Shown here: one piece after another, positions 4,804 through 25,498 of the stretch
How the letters are laid out: each line of letters begins with the position of its first letter
How positions within the stretch are numbered: position 1 is the stretch's first letter
Source: a virus
IMG/VR virus record: IMGVR_UViG_3300049929_000026
Location: 73,619-137,618 of that record
Direction: 5' to 3' (one strand)
Length of the DNA: 64,000 nucleotides
The notes under the pieces: generated by a model
The model's database searches: none
What the model was told of the DNA's origin: nothing
Seen by the model: the letters and a program-made list of their open reading frames with translations, nothing else
Program-made: the position numbers and the translations under genes

Positions 4804-4932
4804 GGGTGTTCCACGTTTAGCGGCTAGCCCTGGACGATCGATACGGTTTATTGAGTCGCAGACGATGTCTGCGTCCAGTCAGCCGTGCTCATCCCGTGGC
4901 TTAAACGATGATGAAAGAATCAACGCCGCGCC

Positions 4933-5400
4933 TTAGTTTCTGAGCGCTTCGTTCACCGCTACCCGCACGCTGGCCCGCCTCGCGAGCTTCCGCAGCGCAT
5001 CAAACTCAACCTGGCGAATCCGCTCCCGGCTGACGCCGCCGATTTCGCCGATCTGCTCGAGCGTCATCTCGACGCCTGGCTTCACTCGATAGGCCATGAT
5101 GGCTTTCCAATCGATTCCGCCGGCTCGGGATGGTATGCAGCCCAATCCGAGGTGCGCGGTTGATCCGCAGCGGCGGCAGTACATCGGCGCTTTCTCGGGC
5201 GTTCGTGCCGGTATTGCCTGCAAGGACGGAGGCGATGCTGGGCGGCTTTTGCCCGCCTTCTGCTCGGCTGCTTGCCGAGAGCGCTCCCGCCTCAATTCCC
5301 TGCCTGACTTCTTCACCGAGTCGCCCGGTCCTCGGCATCGTTCCGGCGCATCTGCCGGGCAATCCCGAATTCCCCAATCTTCGCCTTGAGCGTGGGCCAT
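4933..5400 (-). CDS. sigma-70 region-4 HTH protein with Zn-knuckle
   Basis: MTLEQIGEIGGVSRERIRQVEFDALRKL matches sigma region 4.2; CRRCGSTAHLGLGC; start uncertain. Confidence 0.7.
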   Translation of the reverse strand: MAHAQGEDWGIRDCPADAPERCRGPGDSVKKSGRELRRERSRQAAEQKAGKSRPASPPSLQAIPARTPEKAPMYCRRCGSTAHLGLGCIPSRAGGIDWKAIMAYRVKPGVEMTLEQIGEIGGVSRERIRQVEFDALRKLARRASVRVAVNEALRN

Positions 5401-5912
5401 CCCATCGCTGGGGTGGGTTCTGGGCGGTGCTGGCCGGGGGTGTGTTGGTCGGCGTAGAGGGTTCGTTGGCGGCGCTGTTGCGGCTTCTGTGGGCTCATGC
5501 TCGTGGCTTGAGGGGTGAGGCAGGGTGGGTAGGGGTGGTCAGGTGACCGCTTGGCCTGGCGCTTGCTTATGCCGTCCCTCATGAGGGAAACAACGAAGGC
5601 TCGACCGTTGGCTGATTTCTACACGCAGCACCTGGGGACTCCGACGGCTGGAGCAGGGACTGCGGAGCATCTGACCTACGTCCGCATGCGGCGCGTCCAG
5701 ATGGCGTCAGGAGCTTGGGGCTGGGCTCAGCGCTCGGTGCCTGGACAGAACCGGCGAAGCGCTGGGGCTGGGGTGCGGCAGCTCCGATAGCTGGGGGCGC
5801 CCAGGTGATTGGGGCTTCCTGTCGCCGTACCGAGTTCCCGATGCGCATCCCCAGGAAGAGCGGGGCTCCGTGCGACCCGCTTTCTATAGACGTGCAGCAA
5901 AACCGTGGGCGA

Positions 5913-6362
5913 TCACGTCCCAGTTGCGTCTCGATCAAGCTCCGCCATCTGGGCTATGAATGTGGCGGTAAGCTTCTGTTTCTGTTCGAGAATCCGAATG
6001 CGTGAACCATGGTCATTCACTCGGCGGCGGAGGTCCTTGCATTCCAGGCCGATTTCGATCGTGTTCTTCTCCAGGTCGTCGATCGCTTTGAGCGTCTCTT
6101 GTGGCAACAGATCCTCCAGTGCGCGCTTGCTCACGTAGAGGGCGCGCCCCACGCGCTTAGCGTAAGTGGTGGCGTTCCTGCGCTCAAGCGACCGTAGGAG
6201 GCGGTAGACGTACTTGCGGCGCGTCGCGCGCGTCATGCTGGCGAGCTTCGGGTGGCTGGGCTCGAGGATTTTGGCGAGCTCCACGAGCAGGAACCATCGG
6301 TCGCGGCGGGGCCTCACGGGTCGAGTCCTGGCAACGGGATATCGCCGCGCGCTTCGAGCCAT
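5913..6362 (-). CDS. hypothetical basic, probably DNA-binding protein (paralog of 6823..7245)
   Basis: Shares RPRRxRW...ERRxxxxYxKRxG motif and C-terminal coiled coil with 6823..7245. Confidence 0.6.
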   Translation of the reverse strand: MARSARRYPVARTRPVRPRRDRWFLLVELAKILEPSHPKLASMTRATRRKYVYRLLRSLERRNATTYAKRVGRALYVSKRALEDLLPQETLKAIDDLEKNTIEIGLECKDLRRRVNDHGSRIRILEQKQKLTATFIAQMAELDRDATGT

Positions 6363-6826
6363 CGGCGGCGGATATCCACCTCACTCAGATCGGGGCGCCG
6401 GGCCAGCCAACGCGGGAGCGTCAGGTCGGTCTTGTTGCTATTGCAGGGCTGGCAGGCCGGAGCGAGATTCCCCTCATCGTGTCGACCGCCGCGCACGAAG
6501 GCGACGATGTGGTCGAGCACGAGCAGATCGGCCCGTGTTCCACAATACAAGCAGGAGTAGCCGTGAAGGCGTTCAAGACGCCAGCGCAGTCCGACTGGGT
6601 GAGGCGAGCGACGGGCCGCGATTGCGCTAAGCGGCTGCCGCAGTGATTCCGTGATCGTCAGGTCCTCATCCGGCGCCTGGCCCCACCGGCCGAATGCACG
6701 TTCCTTGGCCAGCCGAAGCGCTCCCAAGCCACCACCATCCGCATCCAAGCTCGACTCGAAAATTAGACGCTTGAAAGCCTCCTCGAACCGCTCCCCGTCA
6801 TAGGCGGTACCGCGTCGGCGCGTCAC
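6314..6826 (-). CDS. HNH endonuclease
   Basis: CLYCG...LDHIVAFVRGGRHDEGNLAPACQPCNSNK. Confidence 0.9.
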   Translation of the reverse strand: MTRRRGTAYDGERFEEAFKRLIFESSLDADGGGLGALRLAKERAFGRWGQAPDEDLTITESLRQPLSAIAARRSPHPVGLRWRLERLHGYSCLYCGTRADLLVLDHIVAFVRGGRHDEGNLAPACQPCNSNKTDLTLPRWLARRPDLSEVDIRRRWLEARGDIPLPGLDP

Positions 6827-7245
6827 GGCAGCAACTTCCGTTCGATTTCCGCGAGGCGTAGCGCCTGGCCACGGATGAGCGCTCCCTGCGCCTTTATCGT
6901 CGCTCTCAGCCTTTTTAGTTCCGCCTCCAGAAACTCCACCCCCGGATCGCGCTGCCCGTGTTCTTTGGCGCTAGCCAACAGCGGCAGGCAGACCCTTTTG
7001 ACGAAGATGTCTCCACCGGCTCGCTTCGTGTATGCCGCCGAATCGCGACGCTCAGCGCTGCCAACGAGCCGGCGAACCGCTTCGCGTTGGCGTTTCCTGT
7101 CCTTGTCGGCGATCTTCGTCCAGAACGCCGGGTGGTGTTCAGGTAACGCACCGAGAACCTCCGGCATGGAGAGCCAGCGTTGGCGACGAGGTCTCATCCT
7201 GGCCAGCTCGGTAGCAACGAGTCGACGCCATCGGGGCATTTGCAT
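6823..7245 (-). CDS. hypothetical basic protein (paralog of 5913..6362)
   Basis: Paralogy as above; stop/start overlap with the HNH gene. Confidence 0.6.
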   Translation of the reverse strand: MQMPRWRRLVATELARMRPRRQRWLSMPEVLGALPEHHPAFWTKIADKDRKRQREAVRRLVGSAERRDSAAYTKRAGGDIFVKRVCLPLLASAKEHGQRDPGVEFLEAELKRLRATIKAQGALIRGQALRLAEIERKLLP

Positions 7246-7546: not shown

Positions 7547-8005
7547 TCACGACTCACTCACCGGAAAACAGATGTCGCGCTTCCAGAGCTCGAAAGCGTA
7601 CAAGGCGTCCGACTTCTGCAGCCGCCCGGCCGAAGTCGCCTGCCAGTTCTGCCCGTCGTCGATCACGCAGGTCAGGCACAAGAGCTCGCCGCGCTTGGCC
7701 CGCTCGAGCAGGACTTCGAGGTGCTGGATGATGACCGCCGAGTACTCTGACCGGCTGGTGTCGATGGCGCGGAGGTTTGTGGGCGCTCGGCCGGACTCTC
7801 TGACCTCGACCGGCTGTCCCAGGACGTCCGTGGCGGCTAGGTCCGGCGGCTCGGTCTCGCGCGCTACCAGCTCGGTCGGCGTCTCACCGCAGATCACGCA
7901 CGGAAACTCGAATCCCGGCACCTGCCCGATGCTTTTCTCCTCGCAGCCCGGCTTCCGGTGCTTCTCGCAGCGCCAGTTCCGGCGGACGAGCTTGATCTCG
8001 GTCAT
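7547..8005 (-). CDS. hypothetical Zn-finger protein
   Basis: CEKHRKPGC and CVIC; ATGA coupling with upstream gene. Confidence 0.55.
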   Translation of the reverse strand: MTEIKLVRRNWRCEKHRKPGCEEKSIGQVPGFEFPCVICGETPTELVARETEPPDLAATDVLGQPVEVRESGRAPTNLRAIDTSRSEYSAVIIQHLEVLLERAKRGELLCLTCVIDDGQNWQATSAGRLQKSDALYAFELWKRDICFPVSES

Positions 8006-8937
8006 TCCGCCGCCTGGGCCGCCGCCAGACCGCGTTCCATCGCCTCAGCGAAGGCAGCCTCGCTCATCCGCATCAGCACCCCGCCACGCCGCCCCTGGCC
8101 GCCCTGGCGCGGCTCAGTGGTCAACTGACAACGTGCGCGTCCGGTGCGGTCCTGAAAGCTCCTGAGGCCCGGCACGGCGCGCTTGGTCGCGAACCAGATG
8201 TCGTGCGCCTCGGCGTCCGCGGCGTGCGCTCGGTTCAGCGCCTCCCGAACTAGCTTCGCCCGGCGCGCCTGCTCGGACCGGTTGATCTTCCCCTTCCGGA
8301 CTGGGGCGGGCTCGACGCAGGCGACGAACAGCTGGGCCGCGTCGTCGCAGAGTTCAAAGGCCAGCGCCGCGTAAACTCCGAGCCCCTCGTTGGTGTTCGT
8401 ATTGCTACCCGTCCGAGTTGGGTCGTGTTGGCCCACGCGGCCGTCTGAGCCCTCAACATACCGATCCTTGGCTCCGAAGCCTTGGTCAGCCCGATACTGT
8501 GCTCTAGGGGCGCTGTAGCGCTTGCAGAGGGTGTTCTGGGTGGCGGCCGGCACAAGTCGCCAGGCTGCCATCAGGTGCCGATGCAGCTCGATCTCGCCGA
8601 TTCCGAGTACGCCTACGCCTAGCTGCATATCGGTAAAATGGTGCTTGTAGCTCCCTGCGCCGTCGAGATTGCCGGTCCCCCCAACCGAGCCGCGCTCAAT
8701 TTGAGAGACCACGCCGGCCAGGGTGCCGCTTGCGCCCATCGCGGCGTCACCGCAAAGCAGAAACCACGCGAGTTGGTCGTCGTAAGACCCGTCTCGGGCT
8801 GGCCGAGGTCGGCGGTCTTTTGGAAGCTCGCGCGGCGACTCGACGGCCACGCGCGGCACGAGGGTCAATGTAGGCGCTAGGACAACCGACTCACTGGTTA
8901 CCGGGATCAACTCGGTAACCGCTTGCAATTCGGACAT
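8002..8937 (-). CDS. hypothetical protein (position typical of a late-gene regulator)
   Basis: 311-aa ORF with AGGAG RBS; function inferred from position only. Confidence 0.6.
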   Translation of the reverse strand: MSELQAVTELIPVTSESVVLAPTLTLVPRVAVESPRELPKDRRPRPARDGSYDDQLAWFLLCGDAAMGASGTLAGVVSQIERGSVGGTGNLDGAGSYKHHFTDMQLGVGVLGIGEIELHRHLMAAWRLVPAATQNTLCKRYSAPRAQYRADQGFGAKDRYVEGSDGRVGQHDPTRTGSNTNTNEGLGVYAALAFELCDDAAQLFVACVEPAPVRKGKINRSEQARRAKLVREALNRAHAADAEAHDIWFATKRAVPGLRSFQDRTGRARCQLTTEPRQGGQGRRGGVLMRMSEAAFAEAMERGLAAAQAAE

Positions 8938-8945
8938 ATTTGAGA

Positions 8946-9025
8946 CACTCCTTGGGGGGTCAGGGCGGTTCCAGGAGTGCTGAGACCCCGAGGCGAGCTG
9001 TGGCGGCTGGCTTCGGGGTTTTGTT
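8946..9025 (-). promoter_or_regulatory. two leader hairpins, one pairing with the RBS of 8002..8937
   Basis: CACTCCT 8946-8952 pairs with AGGAGTG 8973-8979; ACCCCGAGGC...GCTTCGGGGT stem at ~8985-9019. Confidence 0.5.
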
Positions 9026-9028
9026 CGT

Positions 9029-9301
9029 TCAACTGCTAAGCAAACTCTCCTGCTCAGCGGCCCGCAGTTGTCTGAGCTGCGCTTCGATCCGCTGAGAATC
9101 CACGGTTGGGACGCCGTCGCGCGCCCAAATGCTCCAGATCCTCTCTGCTTGGCAGAGGCTCTCGCTGTCGCCGGTCGCAGCCATTACGCAGCACCTATCG
9201 ATGACCCAGAGCACGTCGTTCGGCTCTAACCCGCCTATGTCAGAATCAGTGCCAGCTTGCGACATTGTCTTCAGAAACATCCCGCGGATCCTTTCCGTCA
9301 T
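9029..9301 (-). CDS. hypothetical protein
   Basis: 90-aa ORF in operon orientation. Confidence 0.45.
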   Translation of the reverse strand: MTERIRGMFLKTMSQAGTDSDIGGLEPNDVLWVIDRCCVMAATGDSESLCQAERIWSIWARDGVPTVDSQRIEAQLRQLRAAEQESLLSS

Positions 9302-9332
9302 CAGTACAGCGCCTAGTACAACGCCTTCCCGA

Positions 9333-9348
9333 CTCTCAACACCTGACT
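9333..9348 (-). repeat. solitary half CRISPR repeat (3' 16 nt AGTCAGGTGTTGAGAG)
   Basis: Exact match to the 3' 16 nt of both array repeats, same orientation. Confidence 0.8.
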
Positions 9349-9383
9349 CTTTTTCTCTTCGTCAGCGGTGGTCACGTGACAAC

Positions 9384-9412
9384 ACGTTACACTGCCTTGC
9401 GGCGGTTTGCCA
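9384..9412 (-). promoter_or_regulatory. putative sigma-70 promoter TGGCAA-N17-TAACGT abutting the palindrome at 9368
   Basis: 17-bp spacing counted; lies 35 nt upstream of the half repeat. Confidence 0.5.
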
Positions 9413-9439
9413 CTGTGAGGCGCTGGCGAGCGCCACAAA

Positions 9440-10014
9440 TCAAGCGGCTTTTGCTTTTCCAACCTGCTTCTGCAGCCGGGCGTTCTCCCGCTTCAGCGCC
9501 GTCACCTCCTTCGTGAGCGCCGCCACCTCGGTCTTTAGCCGGGCATTTTCCAGCTCTAAGCTGCCCTGCCGCTGGACGGCCCGGGTTGACGGAGCCAATG
9601 GGGCTTTCTTCTCGATCACGCCGTTGACGATACGTCGCACCTCCTTGGGGCTCGGCGCGCAGTGGTTTGCGTTGATGAACTGATCGAGCGACGCCTCGAC
9701 GAGCTGAACATTCGCCGTGTCAGCGGTGGCGCCTGGCGCCAGAAGGGCATGGCAAGACTCCACTCCAAGCGCCCGCACGCGATCCACGCCGTAGATCTCG
9801 ATCGCCTGGATCACGTTCCCATAACGGTTGAGCCCCATCGCGTTTGGGAACTCCCGCTGCAGGAAGTCACTGAACATCGGCGTCTCTGGCGTCTTCCAGA
9901 TGCCCTGCGTCTCTACTGCTCGAAGCTCGAGGAAGAGATCAACTCCGCTCTCCAGCCAGTTAGCTAGGAGCGTACGGATTTTGGATACGGCTTGTTCATA
10001 TGCTTGATTGCTCA
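9440..10014 (-). CDS. hypothetical protein with C-terminal coiled coil (possible DNA-binding regulator)
   Basis: Start MSNQAY with GGAG RBS directly after the last array repeat; WKTPETPMFSDFLQREF motif. Confidence 0.65.
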
Positions 10015-10025
10015 TTTTAACTCCA

Positions 10026-10132
10026 CTCTCAACACCTGACTTTTCTCTGATCCGTTCCGAGAGCTGGATTCGCACAGCTGAGGACGGGTGCCCAACCTCT
10101 CAACACCTGACTTCTCTCTGATCCGTTCCGAG
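10026..10132 (-). CRISPR. mini CRISPR array: two 36-bp repeats, one 35-bp spacer
   Basis: Repeats 10026-10061 and 10097-10132 (CTCGGAACGGATCAGAGA[A/G]AAGTCAGGTGTTGAGAG on minus, 1 mismatch); spacer 10062-10096; 54 nt downstream of the Cas12-like gene. Confidence 0.85.
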
Positions 10133-10186
10133 CGGTCATCAAGACCGCCAGCAAATTCGCGCTCTTGCCGTCCGCTTTGCGAGCGG

Positions 10187-11812
10187 TCACTCCGCGGCCC
10201 CTGCTTCTGGGGCCAGAGAATCCGAACCGCTCGCAGTCTTGACGCCCTTCTTCCCGAGTCCGCGCTTCTTCGCGCCGGCCTCCTGCATCTTCGCTAGCGC
10301 GTGTTTCTTGCCCACATCGAGTAGATGATTCGCGCATGCGATACCATCCACCGATGCCTTCAATTGGCATTGCTCGCAACGAAACCAGGCCGGCACTCGC
10401 ACAACCCGTTTCCAGACCTCGCCGTCGATGCGTTTGAACTCAACGACGTTGTCGCGGTGCTCAACGTTCGCTTCCGATGTGTGCGAGCAAGCCGGACATC
10501 GCTGCGAGACGAAGCGCGCGTTCTTGTAGTGCGTCCGGATCCCCACCTTGGTGAGCGCCCGATCGATCGTCTGCTGGCTTTCGTAGTAAGGCCACTGATG
10601 GATCAGTCGCTTCAGCTCGCTGTGGGCCTGTCCCTCGGTCTGCTTCTCGAAGTTCTCCCGGATCCCGGTCATGTTCTCCATAAACACGTCGCTAACTCCA
10701 TGAAGCGTGCACCAGCGAGCGAAGTCCGCCGCGCGCTGCCGGATCCGGTCCTTGACTCGCCGCGCTTCTCGATCGCCGATGGCAGTCAGCGGGAGTTCGC
10801 GACGCTTCACGCCGCGTCCGCGGGACCCGCTGCCATGGGCACGCATTCCCTTTGCGATGCGGCGTCTCTGCGCGGCATATTGCTCACGCATCGCGATGAT
10901 GTCAGTCCCCGGATCTTCCCACGTTGTGCCGTCCTCGGACATCGCCAGCATGAACACGTTGATCCCGAAGTTGCAGGCTACCGCATTGCCTGCCTTGTAG
11001 CCTTCGGCTCGGTGCTGAGACCACGAGATGAGCGCGAACCATTTACGCTTTCGCTCGTCGAACTTGATCCCGACCTTTCCAAGCTTGATCGACGCCTTCT
11101 CTTCGAGTTCGAACAGAGCTCGGTCCCTAGCCGCGCGCGCTGCCTTCATTACCTTGTCAGTGGCGTCTTTCGGGAGCGGTTTCTTGGCGGATCGCTCGAG
11201 CTCCACCACGCCTGCTCGGTTGCCCGCTCCACCCACCAGTTGCCTCCAAAGAACCACGGCGTTGCCGCCGCAAGGTGCAACAACGAGAGACGTTGCACCT
11301 TTGCCGGTGCCAAAGAAAGGGAAGGTGAGCCGGGCATCGTCAGGTGTCCCTGAGACTTCGCAGTTGCGTCCCTCCGAGAAGAAGGACTTGCCGGACCCTT
11401 CGAACGTCGGCACGCCCGCGCGACCAGCCAGCAGATCCTTGAGATGCTGCCCAGCGAAGCGCGAAAGTATGTGGTCCGAGGTTTCGCTACACAGAACGTC
11501 CCCGGGCGGGACGTGAGCCGCTGCGTAGTCTTTGCCTGACTTCTTCAGCATGTACGCGCATCGTCGCTCCATGCCGCGAGCCCAATGGAATCGCAGCCGC
11601 TTACGGACATCGTTCTGCCAGGTCGTGCTTGGTTTCTGCTTCTCCGATATCGCCTCGAGTTGGGAAATGGCGCCAGGGTATACGTCACGTAGCGAGAGAT
11701 TCAGCGCCATCGGCAGTGTCTCGCGAAGGGCTCGCATTCGCGCTCCGAGTTCGCTCCAGCTACCATTTGCTGGCTTGACGATCTCAACCTTGAGCGTCCC
11801 TGCCAGCTTCAT
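10187..11812 (-). CDS. TnpB/Cas12f-like type V effector, RuvC-I catalytic Asp replaced by Asn
   Basis: 541 aa; RuvC-I VACNFGIN, bridge helix, RuvC-II VFMENM, SQRCPAC...FRCEQC Zn finger, RuvC-III VDGIACAN; GGAGGA RBS; adjacent array. Confidence 0.85.
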   Translation of the reverse strand: MKLAGTLKVEIVKPANGSWSELGARMRALRETLPMALNLSLRDVYPGAISQLEAISEKQKPSTTWQNDVRKRLRFHWARGMERRCAYMLKKSGKDYAAAHVPPGDVLCSETSDHILSRFAGQHLKDLLAGRAGVPTFEGSGKSFFSEGRNCEVSGTPDDARLTFPFFGTGKGATSLVVAPCGGNAVVLWRQLVGGAGNRAGVVELERSAKKPLPKDATDKVMKAARAARDRALFELEEKASIKLGKVGIKFDERKRKWFALISWSQHRAEGYKAGNAVACNFGINVFMLAMSEDGTTWEDPGTDIIAMREQYAAQRRRIAKGMRAHGSGSRGRGVKRRELPLTAIGDREARRVKDRIRQRAADFARWCTLHGVSDVFMENMTGIRENFEKQTEGQAHSELKRLIHQWPYYESQQTIDRALTKVGIRTHYKNARFVSQRCPACSHTSEANVEHRDNVVEFKRIDGEVWKRVVRVPAWFRCEQCQLKASVDGIACANHLLDVGKKHALAKMQEAGAKKRGLGKKGVKTASGSDSLAPEAGAAE

Positions 11813-11829
11813 TGAAAATCCTCCAAGTG

Positions 11830-12075
11830 ATTCAAGGCAACCATCGACCGGCTAGTCAGGTGTTGACCATGCGACAAGCGCGTGGTCCTGCGGCCGAAGC
11901 CACTCAGCGAGTACGAAGACTCGCTATCTCGACGGTAGATCGCCGGTATTACCGGTCGTTGGCTGCCTTCAATCACTGTTCCAAAATAGAACCGACTCAT
12001 GTAGACCTGCTCCTGTCCGTTTACGCGGACCATGCCCGCGGTCGTGTGATAGCGACGCGCGGGCAACTTCAATCG
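11830..12075 (-). ncRNA. putative tracrRNA/scaffold with anti-repeat at 11854-11866; boundaries approximate
   Basis: Minus-strand TCAACACCTGACT is the exact complement of repeat AGTCAGGTGTTGA; overlaps a doubtful 89-aa ORF. Confidence 0.55.
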
Positions 12076-12316
12076 CACCCCCCGGGCTGGCTGTCAAGTG
12101 ACCACCAAAGCCCGGCGCCTCTCGTTCCTGCTTGTCGCTACTGACGTGATTCCAGTGATTACGCGTCTTTGCGGCGTCCCGGTCGCTCTCCGGGCGCCCC
12201 GGAGTTGCCTGGGCGCAATGTTCGCTTTAGCCTAAACAACAGGTCCAAGCACGTCGGCGCAAGCCGAAGGACGCCTCCGCCACGGGGTAACGCTGCCTAG
12301 CCCGGTAGGGCACGCA

Positions 12317-12895
12317 ATGTTCAACTTAGACAAATTCGCCAATGCGGTGCTGCTCGTGTTGAACGAGAGTCCGTCGCCGCCTGGGTTGACGGTGCTTCTG
12401 AAGGTGCTGTTTCGGTCGGACTTCGCACACTATCAGGAGCATTTGCGTTCGATCACCGGAGTGGAGTACGTGGCACTCGAGCGCGGACCTGTTCCCCACG
12501 ACTACCGCTCGCTTCTTCAGAAGCTAGCAAGCCGGGGCGACGTTGTGGCCGAACGTGTCGACGTTGCCTCGGGCTACAAGCCCATGGAGTGCTACCGCGC
12601 GCTCCGCCGTCCGGATCTCGCGGCCTTCGATCCGAGCGAACTTGCGGTGCTACGCGCGGTCATTGCGGCGGACGCGGGCAAAACGGGAAAGCAGCTGAGC
12701 GACGAGACACATGCCGAACTCCCTTGGCGGGCTGTCTGGCGCGACGGGGAAGGCGAATCCGCCCAGATCCCCTATGCCCTCTCTCGCTGGGAAGAGAACC
12801 GTTGCAATGCGGCGGACCTCACTCAAGCCGCAAACGAGCTGCAGCGAACCGATGTGCAGGCGGTGATTGCGCAACTTGTTCGACCAACTGGCTAG
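12317..12895 (+). CDS. Panacea (DUF4065/SocA-like) antitoxin-domain protein
   Basis: LTVLLKVLFRSDFAHY...SITGVEYVALERGPVP...KQLSDETHAELPW. Confidence 0.8.
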   Translation: MFNLDKFANAVLLVLNESPSPPGLTVLLKVLFRSDFAHYQEHLRSITGVEYVALERGPVPHDYRSLLQKLASRGDVVAERVDVASGYKPMECYRALRRPDLAAFDPSELAVLRAVIAADAGKTGKQLSDETHAELPWRAVWRDGEGESAQIPYALSRWEENRCNAADLTQAANELQRTDVQAVIAQLVRPTG

Positions 12896-12979
12896 CCAGC
12901 AGCCGTGCCGAGACACATGCCACTGGTGCGGCGCTCCGTGCCGTTCGAATCGGATGTTGCCGCGCTGCGAATGCGATAT

Positions 12980-13270
12980 GCGGCGACCCGGCGATTGCCG
13001 AGGCGCACCTGCCGCTGATTCACTTGGTGTTCTCGAATTTCAAGGCGTGGCTGCAAGGGACTCACCATTCTGTTTCTCCGAAGCATTTGCAGGCCTATGC
13101 CAACGAATACGTGTTCCGGTTCAATCGGCGGTTCTACCCGCTCAACGGGTTCCGATCGCTGTTGGGGCTCGGCGCGCTGCGCGAGGCGCCGACGTACGAT
13201 GAGCTGTACTCGGATGCGTGCGTACATCCCGTCGCAGTTGGTCCGTGGGAGCTAACCGGATGAGCATGGA
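12980..13270 (+). mobile_element. IS1595-family transposase 3' remnant with probable right end
   Basis: LPLIHLVFSNFKAWLQGTHHSVSPKHLQAYANEYVFRFNRR is the IS1595 DDE C-terminus; N-terminal part absent. Confidence 0.8.
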
Positions 13271-13386
13271 AATAACATCGGTCTGCGGCTTGCCGTTGTC
13301 ACCGGCAGAGTCAGCGCGGACTTCGAGCTCCACGGGGAGCAGCATGAGACGCTACAGGATACGCTGCCGAGAAAAGTGAGAAGGAA

Positions 13387-13620
13387 ATGCTAGCTTCAGG
13401 ATTCCTATTAATCGTGTTCGGATTCTTCTGCCTGATCTTCATGACGATCGAAAAGGTCGGCAGGAACGCTAGACGTCGCCTGATGCTTGCCGAGCACGAG
13501 CGGCGGAAGGCAATGCTCTATCTGGAACATGGCCGACAAGTCCGTGCCTTGTACGAGAGCCACCGAAAGCGCGCGCCGGAAAAGTTCCACGCTCCGCCAT
13601 ATGACGTGGAAGAATCATGA
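13387..13620 (+). CDS. small single-TM membrane protein
   Basis: AAGGA RBS; hydrophobic N-terminal 20 aa. Confidence 0.55.
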   Translation: MLASGFLLIVFGFFCLIFMTIEKVGRNARRRLMLAEHERRKAMLYLEHGRQVRALYESHRKRAPEKFHAPPYDVEES

Positions 13621-13776
13621 GCCGCGCGCGACGTCAGCAGAAGCGCCGTGCCCGCGCTTGGCAGCTCGAGGTGAGGGACACCGTGTACGGGTGGCGCGCC
13701 GCGTGGTTGATGGGTGATCGAGAGCGCTTCAAGGTGCATTGCTACTCGCGGGTTGAAAGGCGGTTCGATCGAGTGG

Positions 13777-14346
13777 TCACGTGACCACCTTGATCCCGTT
13801 CGTCGCCGCTTGCGATCTGTCTATCGGCAGCCGCCCATGGCACGAGTTTTCTCCGGGCCTTGGGAAGTTCAACGCCGCAAACTCGCCGAAATACTCGCGA
13901 GCCGCCGCGTCGTATGCCCGGGCAGCGTCCTCCTCATCCGTGAAGTACCCAAGGTGTTTTGGGACGTGTGTTTTCTGGTAGTACTGGCCGCCAGAGATCA
14001 TGGCTCGCCATTTCTTGCCGCGCTTGTACCAAGCAACACCTTTGAATCTAGACGTGCCAGTTGTACGAGCGCGCATATTGAAGTGATTTTTGGCAGTCGT
14101 CGTCGCTCGCAGATTTGTGCGGCGATTATTCAGCCCATCGCCGTCTCGGTGATCTACCTCCTCTGCGTCGGACAGGATCACTCGATGCATTAGCAACAGC
14201 TTCTGTTCACCGTTTTCGCAATGAAGCCTGCGGGCGTACCAAGTGTTCCGATGCTGCCAAGCGTGCCAAGTCTTTCCCGCAAAGAGGTGCGCGTCAGCCT
14301 CGTCTACGATCGCCTTCATTCCGTTGCTAAGAATGATCTCCGTCAT
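13777..14346 (-). CDS. HNH-AP2 homing endonuclease-like protein
   Basis: VDHRDGDGLNNRRTNLR (HNH) plus SRFKGV...HLGYFTDEEDAARAYDAAAREYFGEFAALNFP (AP2). Confidence 0.92.
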   Translation of the reverse strand: MTEIILSNGMKAIVDEADAHLFAGKTWHAWQHRNTWYARRLHCENGEQKLLLMHRVILSDAEEVDHRDGDGLNNRRTNLRATTTAKNHFNMRARTTGTSRFKGVAWYKRGKKWRAMISGGQYYQKTHVPKHLGYFTDEEDAARAYDAAAREYFGEFAALNFPRPGENSCHGRLPIDRSQAATNGIKVVT

Positions 14347-14383: not shown

Positions 14384-17194
14384 CTAAGCGGACCGACGAA
14401 TCGACTTCTTGTCGAGGTATGCCTGCGCGATTTTCTTCATTCGGTCCAGGTCGACTTCTTGAGGCAGATCGTTGCCGACTTTCAGATCTCGTACGCCTTC
14501 AAGCTGCGCGCGCTTGATTCCCAAAATGTCGCTGATCACCGGATCGGATCCCTCGTCGGCGAGTAGGAAATAGGAGAACACGGGAAGCAGCTGGCCATCG
14601 CGGTGAATCCTGGTGTCGTTCTGCTCATGGATCCCAGGGCTATAGTCGAGCTCAGCGGACACGACGTTATTGCAGACGTGCTGAAGCCCGTCGAGCCCCT
14701 CACCGGAACGCAGGCTCATGATCAGGATCTTGGTTTCGCCTGCGATAAAGCGCCGCTTGGACTCCTCCTTCTCTTTGACCGATTCGAGTCCCGTGTAGAA
14801 AGCGGGAGCGAAGTCCTTCAGCTTATCGCGCAGCACGTCATACACGGCGTGATGCCACGCGAAGCACACAACTGACTCGCCGCCCTCCACCAGCATCCTC
14901 AGGAACTCCGCCACATACGGCGCCTTCGCCAGCCCCGTAGATTGGCGCAACAGATTGTCGAGCTTGCCTGCGGCCTGCATGCGCGCACCCTTCGACATCT
15001 CACCCTTCGCGAGAATCGTGCGCGCCAAAGCCGTGGCTTGACCATCGACAGCATCGAGCACCTTTTGATCGAAATCGATGTAGTGCGGGATCCGCGTAAG
15101 CGCGGGCAACTGACGTCCGACGTCTTCCTTCGTGCGCCGAATCATCAATCCGGAATCGCGCAGGTACGAGCCCATCGCCTCAGGTGATTTGAGTTTCAGT
15201 TTGCCGGGCTTGTCGGCGTCTCCGGTGCAGTGCTCCTGCTTGAATTCGCTGAGCAGTCCGAGCGCGCCAGGGCGAATGAATTCCATCACGTTCCAGAGCT
15301 CGCCGCCGAGATTTAGAAATGGAGTTCCGGAGAGGCCGATTCGGAACTGAACCCGGCGGGATATTTTCATCGCGGCCTTGCCCTTATTGGTGTCCTCGCC
15401 ATTTCTAAATTCGTGAACCTCGTCATAGACGACGCTCCCTAACTTCACGAGTTGTGCCTGTCCGGCGAGCTTTTCGTTTCCAGAGAGATAGTCGCCCCAT
15501 CCTGGGATCTTCGAATAGCTCGTGATGATCACATCAGGCAGAACGCCGCCGCATTGTTTCGCGATGTCATATGGACGCGTTCCTCTCAAAATGTGCGTCG
15601 ACATGCGCGGCAAGAACTTGCGAAGCTCCGCTTGCCACTGCGATGGCAGGGCAGTCTTCGTCACCACGAGCGCGGGGCGTGTTCGCGGGTCGGTCAAAGC
15701 ACAGGCGGCAGAGATCGTGTTGTGCGTCGCGAGATACCCGTCTGTCAGATATAGATGACGTTTTGAGCTGACCCGGATACATTGGACTGGTTTAATCCCC
15801 GCAGGTTCGACTGTTTTGATAGCGCGGGCCATCAACGGCATACGCCATCGCTCAGCCTTGCGTTTGAGAGCGAATGGGCAAATCGGTATACGGATATGTA
15901 CCGTATATGAGAGACGCCCCTGACGGCGCTCCCCAAGATGTTCGTAATTAGTGTGTCGGCTGTACAACGACGCGAACCCACCTAATGTACCAACAAGATC
16001 TTGTACGCCCTCCGCCAATGGCAAAGAGGTCGATGTGAACGTGACGGTACCGCTCGTTCCACATGTGCCATCCGTGTCCATCAGCCCCTTGAGTAGAGCC
16101 AAACGATCGCTCACTGCGGCGCACAGGTACTCATGCGGGATAGTCTTTTCCCACGAGCGCTTCCCAGCCAGCCCTAACGCGCGCAACGCTTCTATCAGCG
16201 CGTTTTTTTGTCCACCGCGATTCCCGCTGGTAATGTTGTAGTCGAAATTGGACCCGCAAACGGGATGTAGCCATAGCCCGGGCGGAAGCGCAGATATCAC
16301 ATGATCAAGAATTTCTTGATCAGCAGATGATATTGCAACTCCTGCCTGCTTTAGATGCCCATCTCCCAAGAGAACCCCGAGCAGATACGCTGGTATCGGC
16401 AATGGGGGCGCCGGGGCAAACGTGACCGGCTTGGATATTGGCAGGAAGTACTTCGAGTTGACCCTCCCTTTGCCCATGTCGGTATTCAAGGACTTGCGGA
16501 TCTCTGAGAGCGGCAATGTCCTGCTCTTACCGGTATATCGGTCTTGCGCAGTGTGGACGGTCCATAGATGCTCATCGCAGCATTCTGCGGATGCTCCGTC
16601 GGCTGTTGTAACACGAAACACGGGGCGATCTCCTTGTGGAAATATCGCTTCGACGAATGCCGTGCCGCCGTCCGGATCGCTGATTTCATCGCCCACGGCG
16701 AGCTCGCCCATTTTCCTCCAACCATATGGAGTGAGAACCACTGCGTCTAATGGCTGAGCCTTGCCCAGGCCCATCTGGTCGCCGATGAGCACCCCACCTG
16801 TCCGCAGCGCGAGCTCCGCTGCCACCTTCTGGTAGTCGCGTGGCGGCAACGCGAGTTTGAATTCTTGCGGTTTACGCGCTGGGTCCCCGATAATTTGGTG
16901 GACCGCAAATTCCGCTTCGCGGTGTTCATTCGCGCGTCGCGCAAGCCGGATCTCGCTCTCCTTATCGACGTAGTCGAACGGGAACCGTGATTGAAACCAC
17001 TCGATGTCCCGTGACACCTCAGGCGTGTCCATGATGCAGATGATCTCGCGCGTCTTTCCCGCTTGGTATCGCGGCTTCGACATTCGCGGGAACACGCGAC
17101 GCATGCGCAATAACACGTGTGGATCGCACTCAATGATCCAAGAACCATGGTGGTACTTTAGCGTCCCGTAGGTTTTGATCTCTTCTTTGCTCAC
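14384..17194 (-). CDS. SNF2-family helicase containing an intein
   Basis: DQMGLGK|T Walker A split by intein, DEVH, LSGTP, MIRRTK, GEGLDGL, RIHRDGQ. Confidence 0.93.
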   Translation of the reverse strand: MSKEEIKTYGTLKYHHGSWIIECDPHVLLRMRRVFPRMSKPRYQAGKTREIICIMDTPEVSRDIEWFQSRFPFDYVDKESEIRLARRANEHREAEFAVHQIIGDPARKPQEFKLALPPRDYQKVAAELALRTGGVLIGDQMGLGKAQPLDAVVLTPYGWRKMGELAVGDEISDPDGGTAFVEAIFPQGDRPVFRVTTADGASAECCDEHLWTVHTAQDRYTGKSRTLPLSEIRKSLNTDMGKGRVNSKYFLPISKPVTFAPAPPLPIPAYLLGVLLGDGHLKQAGVAISSADQEILDHVISALPPGLWLHPVCGSNFDYNITSGNRGGQKNALIEALRALGLAGKRSWEKTIPHEYLCAAVSDRLALLKGLMDTDGTCGTSGTVTFTSTSLPLAEGVQDLVGTLGGFASLYSRHTNYEHLGERRQGRLSYTVHIRIPICPFALKRKAERWRMPLMARAIKTVEPAGIKPVQCIRVSSKRHLYLTDGYLATHNTISAACALTDPRTRPALVVTKTALPSQWQAELRKFLPRMSTHILRGTRPYDIAKQCGGVLPDVIITSYSKIPGWGDYLSGNEKLAGQAQLVKLGSVVYDEVHEFRNGEDTNKGKAAMKISRRVQFRIGLSGTPFLNLGGELWNVMEFIRPGALGLLSEFKQEHCTGDADKPGKLKLKSPEAMGSYLRDSGLMIRRTKEDVGRQLPALTRIPHYIDFDQKVLDAVDGQATALARTILAKGEMSKGARMQAAGKLDNLLRQSTGLAKAPYVAEFLRMLVEGGESVVCFAWHHAVYDVLRDKLKDFAPAFYTGLESVKEKEESKRRFIAGETKILIMSLRSGEGLDGLQHVCNNVVSAELDYSPGIHEQNDTRIHRDGQLLPVFSYFLLADEGSDPVISDILGIKRAQLEGVRDLKVGNDLPQEVDLDRMKKIAQAYLDKKSIRRSA
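15719..16759 (-). mobile_element. 347-aa class 3-type intein with LAGLIDADG endonuclease
   Basis: Starts AQPLD, ends ATHN before Thr; EHLW, VQCI, ATHN (WCT signature); LLGVLLGDG and LKGLMDTDG motifs. Confidence 0.9.
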
Positions 17195-24055: not shown

Positions 24056-25498
24056 TCAGAATAGACTCCTCTGCGCCGGCTCGTCGCCGGTCAAGCGCGC
24101 TGGGTCGGCGTCCGTCGATGTCGGCCGATAGCCACCGCCAATCACCCAAGCAATGCGTTTGCGCGCAACGCGAACGAATGGCTCGCCCTTTGAGTTATTC
24201 AACTCGATCCCAAAATATCGGAAGCCCTCCAGAACAGCCGCCACGCCACCGCTCCCTGAGCCGCAGAATGGATCAAGCACGATGCCATGCCGTACTGGCG
24301 TGACCAGTCTCGTCAGATAGCGCAACAGGGCCACAGGCTTCGGTGTTGGATGCGGGTTCTTGCCGTCAAGCCCCGCGTTCTTCTCCGCCTTGCTGGCCTT
24401 CGTCTCGAACCGAAAACGAGCTACGTCATCCAATTCAGTCCATTCGGACTGGTGAAAAAACCGCGAAGCCGTGCCGGAGTCTCCGTAGGTTGCGCTTGTG
24501 ATGGTCCGCGGAAAGGCGCCCCCGTAGCCGCCATCGGTCGAACGCTCCGTCCCCGCGGGCATCAGGACTGATGCCCGGTCGCCGCTCTGCATGTCCAGCT
24601 CACGCACAGGGCACCCGTCCTGACAGTCGTATTCCGCGACGACTTCCTCTGCGTGTCGGACCTGCGACACCGCTGCGCCTGTAAACGCACTGGGCTCCGT
24701 GTCTCGATTCGGCGTGTCCCAAGTTGGATTGGCTTTTACAGTCTTTGTGCCTACGGGTCGACAGCCCGGGGCGTGAGTCAGTAGCGTGTTCGCTGGCCAT
24801 CGGCCACCGGCGTGAACGTCATTCGCTCCGCTCAAATCTGAGCTGTTCTTCCAACTCGCGTCCATGGATCCGCCACGCGCTTTGACAGCTTTCACCTGCG
24901 CCTCATGCGCGGCCAGATCGGCTGGCGATGCATGAGCGATGCGGCTGTCGTCGATGTTCAGGCCACCTGTGCCCCACTTGGCATGGTTCGCCGTCGTGGT
25001 GCCTTCGGGCTTCTTGCGCGCCACGATGATCGGCTCGAAGGAAGGCTTGAGTCCAGTCCCGATCCCGCCGCCAAAATTGCGGCTCTTGGGCATTCCAGAG
25101 GCGTAGTGCCAAGCGAGTCCGTCGCGGATCTCGAATCCGGCGTCTTCGATCGCGCAGCCGATACGGTGTGCTGTTCTCGACCCACCGAACGCAAGCAGGT
25201 ACGCGCCTGGCTTCAATACACGCAACACGGCCGCCCATGTCTCCGGTCGAAATGCGATGTCTCCGCCGTCCCAGACACGCCCCATGAAACCCTTGGAACC
25301 GATGGCGTGCCGGCCAAACGGCGACTCTGGATTGTTCGTGCGCGCGGATCCGCCGCGACTCGCGCTCGTCAGATGATAAGGCGGATCACACACACACGAA
25401 TCGCATGAACTATCTGGAAGAAGCGGGAGCACGTCGAGCATCGATCCATGCTCGATCGCCCAACGTTCCGCACCACTGAGAACCTTTTTCCAGCCCAT
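24056..25498 (-). CDS. amino (N6-A/N4-C) DNA methyltransferase, beta class
   Basis: CDPPY, HPTPKP, LDPFCGSGS. Confidence 0.93.
   Translation of the reverse strand: MGWKKVLSGAERWAIEHGSMLDVLPLLPDSSCDSCVCDPPYHLTSASRGGSARTNNPESPFGRHAIGSKGFMGRVWDGGDIAFRPETWAAVLRVLKPGAYLLAFGGSRTAHRIGCAIEDAGFEIRDGLAWHYASGMPKSRNFGGGIGTGLKPSFEPIIVARKKPEGTTTANHAKWGTGGLNIDDSRIAHASPADLAAHEAQVKAVKARGGSMDASWKNSSDLSGANDVHAGGRWPANTLLTHAPGCRPVGTKTVKANPTWDTPNRDTEPSAFTGAAVSQVRHAEEVVAEYDCQDGCPVRELDMQSGDRASVLMPAGTERSTDGGYGGAFPRTITSATYGDSGTASRFFHQSEWTELDDVARFRFETKASKAEKNAGLDGKNPHPTPKPVALLRYLTRLVTPVRHGIVLDPFCGSGSGGVAAVLEGFRYFGIELNNSKGEPFVRVARKRIAWVIGGGYRPTSTDADPARLTGDEPAQRSLF

Follow-up and report, generated by a model that had tools for sequence, protein, structure and literature searches.

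In a 64,000-nucleotide (nt) stretch of viral DNA (hereafter the window, covering positions 73,619 to 137,618 of the 137,618-base IMG/VR virus record IMGVR_UViG_3300049929_000026), the minus-strand 13-mer TCAACACCTGACT at 11854..11866 is very probably the anti-repeat of a trans-activating CRISPR RNA (tracrRNA), which would serve a phage-borne miniature type V, Cas12f-like CRISPR system. This reading is drawn from sequence comparison of the window with homologous loci, designated by L numbers. We regard it as a well-supported tracrRNA assignment; the Cas12f-like family concerned is rare and uncharacterised, and it has probably been catalogued already.

The 13-mer is complementary to all three repeats of the locus

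On the minus strand, the locus is ordered as TCAACACCTGACT, a gap of 41 nt, the ATG and body of the effector gene, a 54-nt leader, repeat 1, a spacer, repeat 2, a gene of 191 amino acids (aa) and a half repeat. The sequence AGTCAGGTGTTGA has four exact copies in the window, one on the plus strand (11854-11866) and three on the minus strand (10100-10112, 10029-10041 and 9336-9348), all of which fall in this one locus within 2.5 kb. Read on the minus strand from 11866 to 11854, the plus-strand copy becomes TCAACACCTGACT, the exact complement of the 3' part of all three repeat copies, located 41 nt from the ATG at 11812 of the 541-aa open reading frame (ORF; 10187-11812, minus strand) that encodes the effector. 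The coordinates, the exact complementarity and the 41-nt distance given in an earlier reading of the sequence (the original prediction) are all correct. The sequence common to the three repeats is AGTCAGGTGTTGAGAG(T), of 16-17 nt, which contains the whole 13-mer, in agreement with the claim that the match lies in the only part that they share. With up to one mismatch allowed, the whole 137,618-base record holds the same four sites only, and a reversed-pattern control gave one match. By arithmetic, ~0.002 exact copies of a 13-mer are expected per 64 kb on both strands; moreover, the same relation recurs with other sequences in four further loci, so the judgement that a chance match is unlikely was sound.

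Anti-repeat and repeat co-vary among five loci

We compared the window with 12 family loci that represent nine distinct ones (L002/L013, L003, L004, L007, L008, L009/L010, L011/L012, L015 and L016); the closest homologues of the effector (P0002-P0004, 57-76% identity) lie on contigs outside this comparison, and the effectors of L007 and L015 are 55% and 45% identical to that of the window, respectively. The anti-repeat of the window, TCAACACCTGACT, faces the repeat 3' part AGTCAGGTGTTGA, and four other loci possess a corresponding pair of different sequence: GAACACCTGACG and CGTCAGGTGTTC in L007, 220 nt from the effector ATG; AAACACCTGACC and GGTCAGGTGTTT in L015, at 40 nt; CAACACCATTCC and GGAATGGTGTTG in L011, at about 866 nt; and CAATTCCATTCC and GGAATGGAATTG in L016, at about 979 nt. 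All five anti-repeats are perfect Watson-Crick complements without a single G-U pair, and each is the best same-strand duplex partner of the repeat 3' end in its entire locus, with energies of -19.4 to -24.2 kcal/mol. Every locus has one perfect antisense copy, compared to 3, 15, 7, 32 and 30 sense copies with up to two mismatches in the window, L007, L015, L011 and L016, respectively; L007 has one further antisense match, with two mismatches and within a coding region. In the window, the anti-repeat would pair with the repeat from position -16 to position -4, counted from the spacer, and the paired part ends 3-4 nt short of the spacer in all five loci.

The proximity of the anti-repeat to the ribosome-binding site (RBS) of the effector gene is not conserved, because its distance from the ATG ranges from 40 to about 979 nt, and half repeats or whole arrays stand between the two in L007, L011 and L016. 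The original prediction had also suggested that processing of the duplex could couple guide maturation to effector translation. Such a coupling is possible in the two loci whose element lies right next to the RBS, the window and L015, and the variable spacing argues against it.

The tracrRNA-like core is a conserved, structured element

The anti-repeat is embedded in a tracrRNA-like core (11832..11968, minus strand), in which a closing stem is predicted to surround four hairpins, with the anti-repeat placed in a single-stranded junction. In the window, the segment 11835-11965 (minus strand) folds with a minimum free energy (MFE) of -59.6 kcal/mol (z -4.64), which none of 200 shuffled sequences equalled. 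The fold has a long closing stem enclosing the four hairpins, with 11 of the 13 anti-repeat nucleotides unpaired in the junction of the MFE structure. We built a covariance model, R1, from the window and L007 only, leaving the anti-repeat unpaired. This model found full-length matches at the anti-repeat sites of L016 (E 1.9e-9), L011/L012 (E 4.4e-6) and L015 (E 4.6e-6), and it has a single true match, of 149.9 bits at 11832-11968 (minus strand), both in the window and in the whole record.

In the resulting five-sequence alignment, 97.1% of the 136 base-pair cells form standard pairs, and compensatory changes on both sides occur in 14 of the 28 pairs, including 8 of the 12 in the closing stem alone. 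None of 500 shuffled alignments reached any of the five covariation measures, and partners slid by 1-3 columns pair in only 29-47% of cases. In addition, the eight G-U cells of this alignment favour the minus strand. The check proposed in the original prediction, namely covariation across homologous loci, has thus come out in its favour, as the helices and the anti-repeat/repeat pair co-vary in five loci. A second anti-repeat, formed by the loop of hairpin 1 (GATCTAC in the window and L007, GGTCCAC in L015) and the repeat 5' part, was considered and rejected; no such complementarity exists in L011 and L016. A scan of 8000-14000 against Rfam gave no family match except a chance small nucleolar RNA at E 0.99.

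The original prediction took some 250 nt, from the RBS up to an upstream palindrome, to be a tracrRNA or scaffold rather than an 89-aa ORF. The scaffold with its anti-repeat and the dismissal of the ORF both stand; the extent does not, since the core spans only ~137 nt (11832-11968) and the sequence from 11969 to the palindrome is conserved in neither L007 nor L015. The 89-aa ORF lacks a conserved reading frame because the insertions and deletions that separate the window from L007 within the element (1, 2, 1 and 5 nt) break the shared frame, and a Pfam scan of its product gave no match. Each of the five loci has one frame that stays open throughout the element, which is uninformative in GC-rich DNA. 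Altogether, the comparison supports the view that the ORF is not a gene. The palindrome itself is real: TGTCAAGTGACCACC stands at 12092..12106, ~125 nt upstream of the core, and its minus-strand reading, GGTGGTCACTTGACA, holds TTGACA as claimed. This near-palindrome has a second copy at 9367-9381, just upstream of the half repeat, the form being GGTGGTCAC(G/T)TGACA, and the two, one on either side of the locus, may be operators or promoters.

The effector resembles Cas12f and lacks the first catalytic aspartate

The effector gene (10187..11812, minus strand) is a single-copy gene in the record and encodes a 541-aa Cas12f-like protein, P0001. It matches the guided_TnpB family NF040570 with an E-value of 1.5e-21 and 77.1 bits, under the cut-off of 100, and also a Cas12f1-like TNB domain. 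Searching the PDB with a profile of 26 homologues revealed AsCas12f (PDB 8j12) as the best match (E 9e-30), followed by other Cas12f structures. In agreement with this, the AlphaFold model of the effector (mean predicted local distance difference test, pLDDT, 84.4) retrieved Cas12f chains by Foldseek at all 15 matches listed among ranks 1-16, the best with an E-value of 6.9e-21.

The HMMER alignment to AsCas12f placed an asparagine of the family (Asn281) opposite the catalytic aspartate of the "IDLG" motif at RuvC-I, whereas the RuvC-II glutamate (Glu379) and the RuvC-III aspartate (Asp489) are aligned with their counterparts and, like the four zinc-finger cysteines, are kept in P0001. Among the 26 first homologues, the RuvC-I position is occupied by Asn in 21, His in 3, Arg in 1, Val in 1 and Asp in none, while 23 retain the RuvC-II Glu, 25 the RuvC-III Asp and all 26 the four cysteines. 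After 24 further representatives had been added, 49 family sequences could be read at RuvC-I, one truncated sequence being gapped there, and none has an aspartate (40 Asn, 5 His, 2 Val, 1 Arg and 1 Ile). Contigs from two DNA runs that were placed on the locus were all identical in sequence. The region around the Asn codon (10880-11165) shows no difference in contigs of a second soil study, which speaks against an assembly error confined to a single data set as the source of the codon. As the RuvC-I aspartate is replaced throughout the family, we lean towards an effector that would bind its DNA target without canonical cleavage.

The family is small. An exhaustive profile search of 1.84 billion representatives yielded 32 (50%-identity clusters) at E ≤ 1.2e-84, the next one following at 1.2e-55, and 172 representatives at E ≤ 1e-30. 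Among its nearest relatives outside the family, P0052-P0089 (E 1e-55 to 1e-39; aligned by MAFFT), 37 of 38 are also devoid of the RuvC-I Asp (21 His, 11 Asn and 5 Arg), and this region reads like A-(V/I)-(H/N)-R-G. The altered RuvC-I site may thus mark a much larger clade. At the C-terminus (window ~10190-10198), 11 of the 26 effectors end in the tripeptide AAE; the partner protein of L015, described below, ends in AAE as well, and those of the window, L010 and L003 end in AA. This common ending may be a C-terminal docking or degradation signal.

Mini-array, half repeats and guide-RNA layouts

Downstream of the effector stop codon, a leader (10133..10186, minus strand) extends to repeat 1 and begins with the conserved motif CGCTCGCAAAG, of the form (G)CGCTCGCA(A/G)A, at 10176-10186 (minus strand). 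A leader of ~55 nt is also found in L007 and L015, and the same motif occurs in six loci including the window (L007 ~5388-5400, L015 ~2346-2358, L004 ~6150, L002 ~2800 and L003 ~6205), either immediately behind the stop codon of the effector or ~55 nt ahead of the first repeat; it precedes arrays in L004, L002 and L003. For the arrays, the motif could serve as a leader, a promoter or a signal for processing. Repeat 1 (10097..10132, minus strand; 36 nt) reads CTCGGAACGG...GTTGAGAG and is followed by the only canonical spacer (10062..10096, minus strand; 35 nt). Repeat 2 (10026..10061, minus strand), also of 36 nt, shares 97% identity with repeat 1 and stops 10 nt short of the ATG of the partner gene. 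Beyond that gene, a stand-alone half repeat (9332..9348, minus strand) keeps the 3' 16-17 nt of the repeat, including the whole tracrRNA-pairing part, and is located ~32 nt upstream of a 90-aa ORF that begins with the ATG at 9301. The repeat motif is thus found just upstream of three consecutive genes.

In L007 and L015, true repeat-spacer arrays directly follow the effector gene, with a period of ~72 nt and 15 and 7 repeat cores, respectively, and a homologue of the 191-aa ORF stands after each array. The spacers in the arrays of the homologues are unique and of about 35 nt. In L011, L016, L008 and L007, full repeats are mixed with short ones that retain only the tracrRNA-pairing 3' part, at spacings of 33-52 nt; the third copy of the window belongs to this short class. 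L011 displays two kinds of full repeat with the same tracrRNA-pairing 3' part, one in the upstream array (2080-2800) and one in the downstream arrays (4860-6340), which differ in their 5' parts (CTTGAAACGCTTGATCAG... versus AGCGAAACGGACGCGAAG...), and the arrays have at least one spacer in common.

Other members of the family show different layouts. L002 has an 18-nt perfect anti-repeat to the repeat 5' part, which is located beside the same GCGAGG...CCTCGC hairpin, before a terminator-like hairpin, but downstream of the array. L003 and L009/L010 contain ~60-nt repeated units, in which TTGCAC...GTGCAA flanks the GCGAGG...CCTCGC hairpin and variable sequence comes next; arrays of these units, each comprising the scaffold hairpin and the repeat 3' end, were found at 6028-6860 and 3727-3963 of L010 and at 3672-3950 of L003. 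R1 matches these units partially and in multiple copies. By sequence, the units are scaffold and repeat fused in a single-guide-like form. A motif scan of viral contigs for more loci returned no match.

A conserved coiled-coil partner

The partner gene (9440..10015, minus strand) encodes a protein of 191 residues, whose N-terminal domain is helical and whose C-terminal part is a coiled coil. It is present downstream of the effector in 10 of 10 distinct family loci (window counted) and absent from six distant TnpB loci by the same search, whereas no transposase is conserved beside the effector gene among the family loci compared. Its AlphaFold2 model has a mean pLDDT of 87.6. Apart from coiled-coil noise, searches of Pfam and PHROG assigned the protein to no family, and Foldseek gave no match at E ≤ 0.001; the protein weakly resembles the DNA-binding domains of ParB/Spo0J (Z 6.8, root mean square deviation 3.2 over 108 residues), a likeness below the significance guide of the tool, and leads from the Atlas point to it too. 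The predicted effector-partner complex scored 0.00 and 0.00, which speaks neither for nor against binding.

Spacer targets

Spacer 1 of L015 (2437-2471) matches another contig of the same bin (L020 5550-5584) at 31 of 35 nt, with a 30-nt core at E 2.3e-6. The target is within a 1120-aa gene that has a podophage Gp77 domain and a PHROG minor-tail match. All four mismatches fall in spacer positions 3-9, and the 10 nt on the side of the protospacer-adjacent motif are CGTAGCCTGC. The match in a phage tail gene therefore points to other phages or rival mobile elements as targets. The arrays of two further loci yielded less: that of L007 had no match to phages, and that of L016 gave only weak matches to its own genome (E ≥ 0.009). 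Positions 4-16 of the window spacer have a 13-nt exact match at 24609-24621 (98227-98239 of the genome; E 0.04), the only partial self-match and probably due to chance.

Proposed mechanism and alternative explanations

We propose that the tracrRNA, the effector mRNA, the mini-array and the partner mRNA derive from one or a few minus-strand transcripts; a scan found no terminator between the core and the effector gene in the window. The anti-repeat would pair with each repeat or half repeat, and the resulting duplexes of tracrRNA and CRISPR RNA (crRNA) would be loaded onto the effector, which, like Cas12f, is probably a dimer; the guide would lie 3' of the repeat, in keeping with other type V systems. 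The complex might then silence or mark the bound target, possibly together with the conserved 191-aa partner. A more far-reaching picture is offered as speculation and is unlikely to hold as a whole. It has an effector with an altered RuvC-I and the tracrRNA in its own 5' leader, taking guides from full repeats and from 16-19-nt half repeats before neighbouring genes, and bringing a ParB-like coiled-coil partner to guide-chosen DNA as a silencing or marking device in conflicts between mobile elements, all stages of guide RNA, from dual to fused single-guide, being found in one small family.

Several observations weigh against the tracrRNA reading or against a non-cleaving effector. Perfect complementarity alone cannot separate RNA pairing from an inverted protein-binding site. 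No anti-repeat was found in L004 (9.4 kb) and L008 (2.4 kb), and the core upstream of the effector is known from as few as five loci, with a variant in L002. The pair counts come from an alignment fitted to the model structure, itself derived from two of the five sequences (the window and L007). A promoter and terminator scan of 9200-12400 found no sigma-70-like site and no terminator flanking the element, and no RNA runs covering 9300-12150 of the window are listed, so that we infer the transcription, ends and processing of the tracrRNA from sequence. When tracrRNA, repeat and spacer were folded together by RNAcofold, the anti-repeat:repeat duplex formed in two of the five loci (L007 and L015), only with the closing stem opened, and in the window, L011 and L016 the tracrRNA was kept closed without a duplex; we attribute the failure to the algorithm, which disallows an intermolecular helix within a closed multiloop. 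The window spacer has no protospacer in its own genome, in viral contigs (24-nt exact stretch) or in phage records, and its matches in plasmids are at E 4 only. As for cleavage, its putative loss is deduced from one residue, and a conserved 12-residue insertion after RuvC-II, which includes Glu389, might rebuild the active site.

A pairing RNA is not the only way to account for an inverted copy. The 13-16-mer could be a protein operator or a centromere-like site, for instance for the ParB-like or helix-turn-helix (HTH) partner, the co-variation then reflecting a common binding specificity. The position of the motif before three consecutive genes, the weak ParB/Spo0J/Noc likeness of the partner and the five perfect complements free of G-U pairs would suit such an inverted DNA site. 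However, the inverted copy always occupies the same place in a structured RNA with co-varying helices, and the direct copies form arrays with unique ~35-nt spacers, unlike iterated centromere repeats; given also that the adjacent protein is a Cas12f homologue and that the ParB likeness is below the significance guide, we consider an operator very improbable. An element acting solely in cis as a regulator in the 5' untranslated region (an attenuator or translational operator, the repeat complementarity serving autoregulation) would fit its end 40-41 nt before the ATG in the window and L015 and the lack of a terminator in between. It is made very improbable by the 220, about 866 and about 979 nt, with intervening half repeats or arrays, in L007, L011 and L016, and by the L002 counterpart downstream of the array; moreover, scaffold parts are fused to each repeat unit in L003, L009 and L010, which would be the behaviour of a guide scaffold and not of an untranslated region.

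The inverted 13-mers that flank a TnpB-related gene also recall the terminal inverted repeats of a transposable element. Yet the gene and the 13-mer locus occur once per record with no second element, three direct copies stand on one side, arrays of the homologues reach 30 or more copies, and it is the partner, not a transposase, that is conserved beside the gene, all of which leaves this origin a most remote prospect. Coincidence has the least claim of all. Allowing two mismatches, the window holds five matches to the 13-mer compared to a shuffle mean of 0.89, and 1 of 100 shuffles did reach five; nevertheless, four exact copies share one locus, and the recurrence of the relation with different sequences in four other loci refutes a chance origin. 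The anti-repeat of a tracrRNA thus remains the explanation that we favour.

Comparison with known systems

Cas12f enzymes use tracrRNAs. The system resembles type V-F (Cas12f/Cas14) in its compact 541-aa effector with a TnpB-like RuvC and a zinc finger, for which Cas12f, whose fold comprises WED, REC and RuvC parts, is the best match by both profile and fold, in its CRISPR repeats with the guide 3', in the separate structured tracrRNA with an anti-repeat (predicted here from comparison), and in the adjacent array, which in the window amounts to two full repeats, one spacer and one half repeat. It differs from type V-F in that the RuvC-I Asp is absent family-wide, so the intact RuvC Asp-Glu-Asp triad of that type is broken (Asn281); in the conserved partner and the many half repeats; and in the position of the tracrRNA upstream of the effector, in the window directly before the RBS. 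Of the adaptation genes that V-F1 loci possess, there is also no cas1 or cas2 in the record: in the 137.6-kb sequence (86% complete), Cas1 and Cas2 were searched for and not found, with positive controls detected, and no search was made for cas4. Anti-repeat-bearing tracrRNAs are known from type V-F1 Cas12f systems, according to the passages of PMC13472631 concerned.

A fitting description is that of V-U24 (PMC10691335, Altae-Tran et al. 2023), reported in the relevant passages to combine a noncanonical RuvC-I with CRISPR association and an associated HTH-domain protein. The family agrees with this description and on that basis may be V-U24: the RuvC-I site and the arrays agree, and the HTH nature of our partner rests on the weak matches mentioned above. 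The passages on V-U24 in PMC10691335 give no tracrRNA for it. A literature search found V-U24 in no other paper of the library and no characterisation of it; another, for Cas12f, ParB, a coiled coil and nuclease inactivity together, found nothing.

Similarity also exists to dCas12f-sigmaE (PMC13472631), as described in the passages concerned. Both are Cas12f-derived, predicted or shown to be non-cutting, and have short guides, and the arrays of scaffold-plus-guide units there resemble those of L003 and L010; the effector matches PDB 9n9c with an E-value of 4e-11 by sequence and 1.2e-11 by fold. However, the dCas12f-sigmaE proteins are C-terminally truncated, linked to rpoE and found in Bacteroidetes, and they use a single guide RNA, the authors having found no tracrRNA, whereas the protein here is full length with RuvC-II and RuvC-III and has a putative tracrRNA (dual RNA) and another partner. 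A Pfam scan of the locus genes detected no sigma-factor domain. The same source also mentions dead Cas12f proteins of Bacteroidetes that are CRISPR-associated, form a cluster of their own and have guides directed at efflux promoters.

Cas12m is not known to use a tracrRNA, and Cas12k acts together with Tn7-like genes, neither of which agrees with the neighbourhood conserved here. Both appear among the fold matches of the effector, much weaker than Cas12f, and both (V-M and V-K, respectively) are listed in PMC10691335, in the passages concerned, among type V effectors that bind DNA without cutting. Compared to IS200/IS605 TnpB with its omega RNA, the effector gene is single copy and accompanied by arrays and a separate upstream scaffold, and it scores 77.1 bits against the cut-off of 100 of NF040570. 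Cas12r of Thermus phages (10.64898/2026.04.20.719267) was considered and set aside, being an active interference system and not the family described here.

The anti-repeat would define the RNA component that had been missing from a rare family of type V. The boundaries of the tracrRNA, the repeat register and the guide orientation together allow the design of a single-guide RNA, which makes it testable whether an effector with Asn for Asp at RuvC-I can cut DNA, and what role the conserved partner plays. In addition, the dual-RNA, half-repeat and fused single-guide layouts that stand side by side in this family might be natural intermediates for the transitions proposed in the corresponding passages of PMC10691335 and PMC13472631.

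Neighbouring genes

Directly upstream of the locus are two plus-strand ORFs. One (12317-12895) encodes a protein with a SocA/Panacea antitoxin domain (E 3.5e-13), the other (12589-13263) a fragmentary IS1595/ISXO2-like transposase domain (E 5.5e-13). Further upstream, the minus-strand gene at 14384-17194 encodes an SNF2-family helicase of 936 aa; its residues 364-416 hold an inserted LAGLIDADG-like domain, which looks like an intein or homing-endonuclease insertion.

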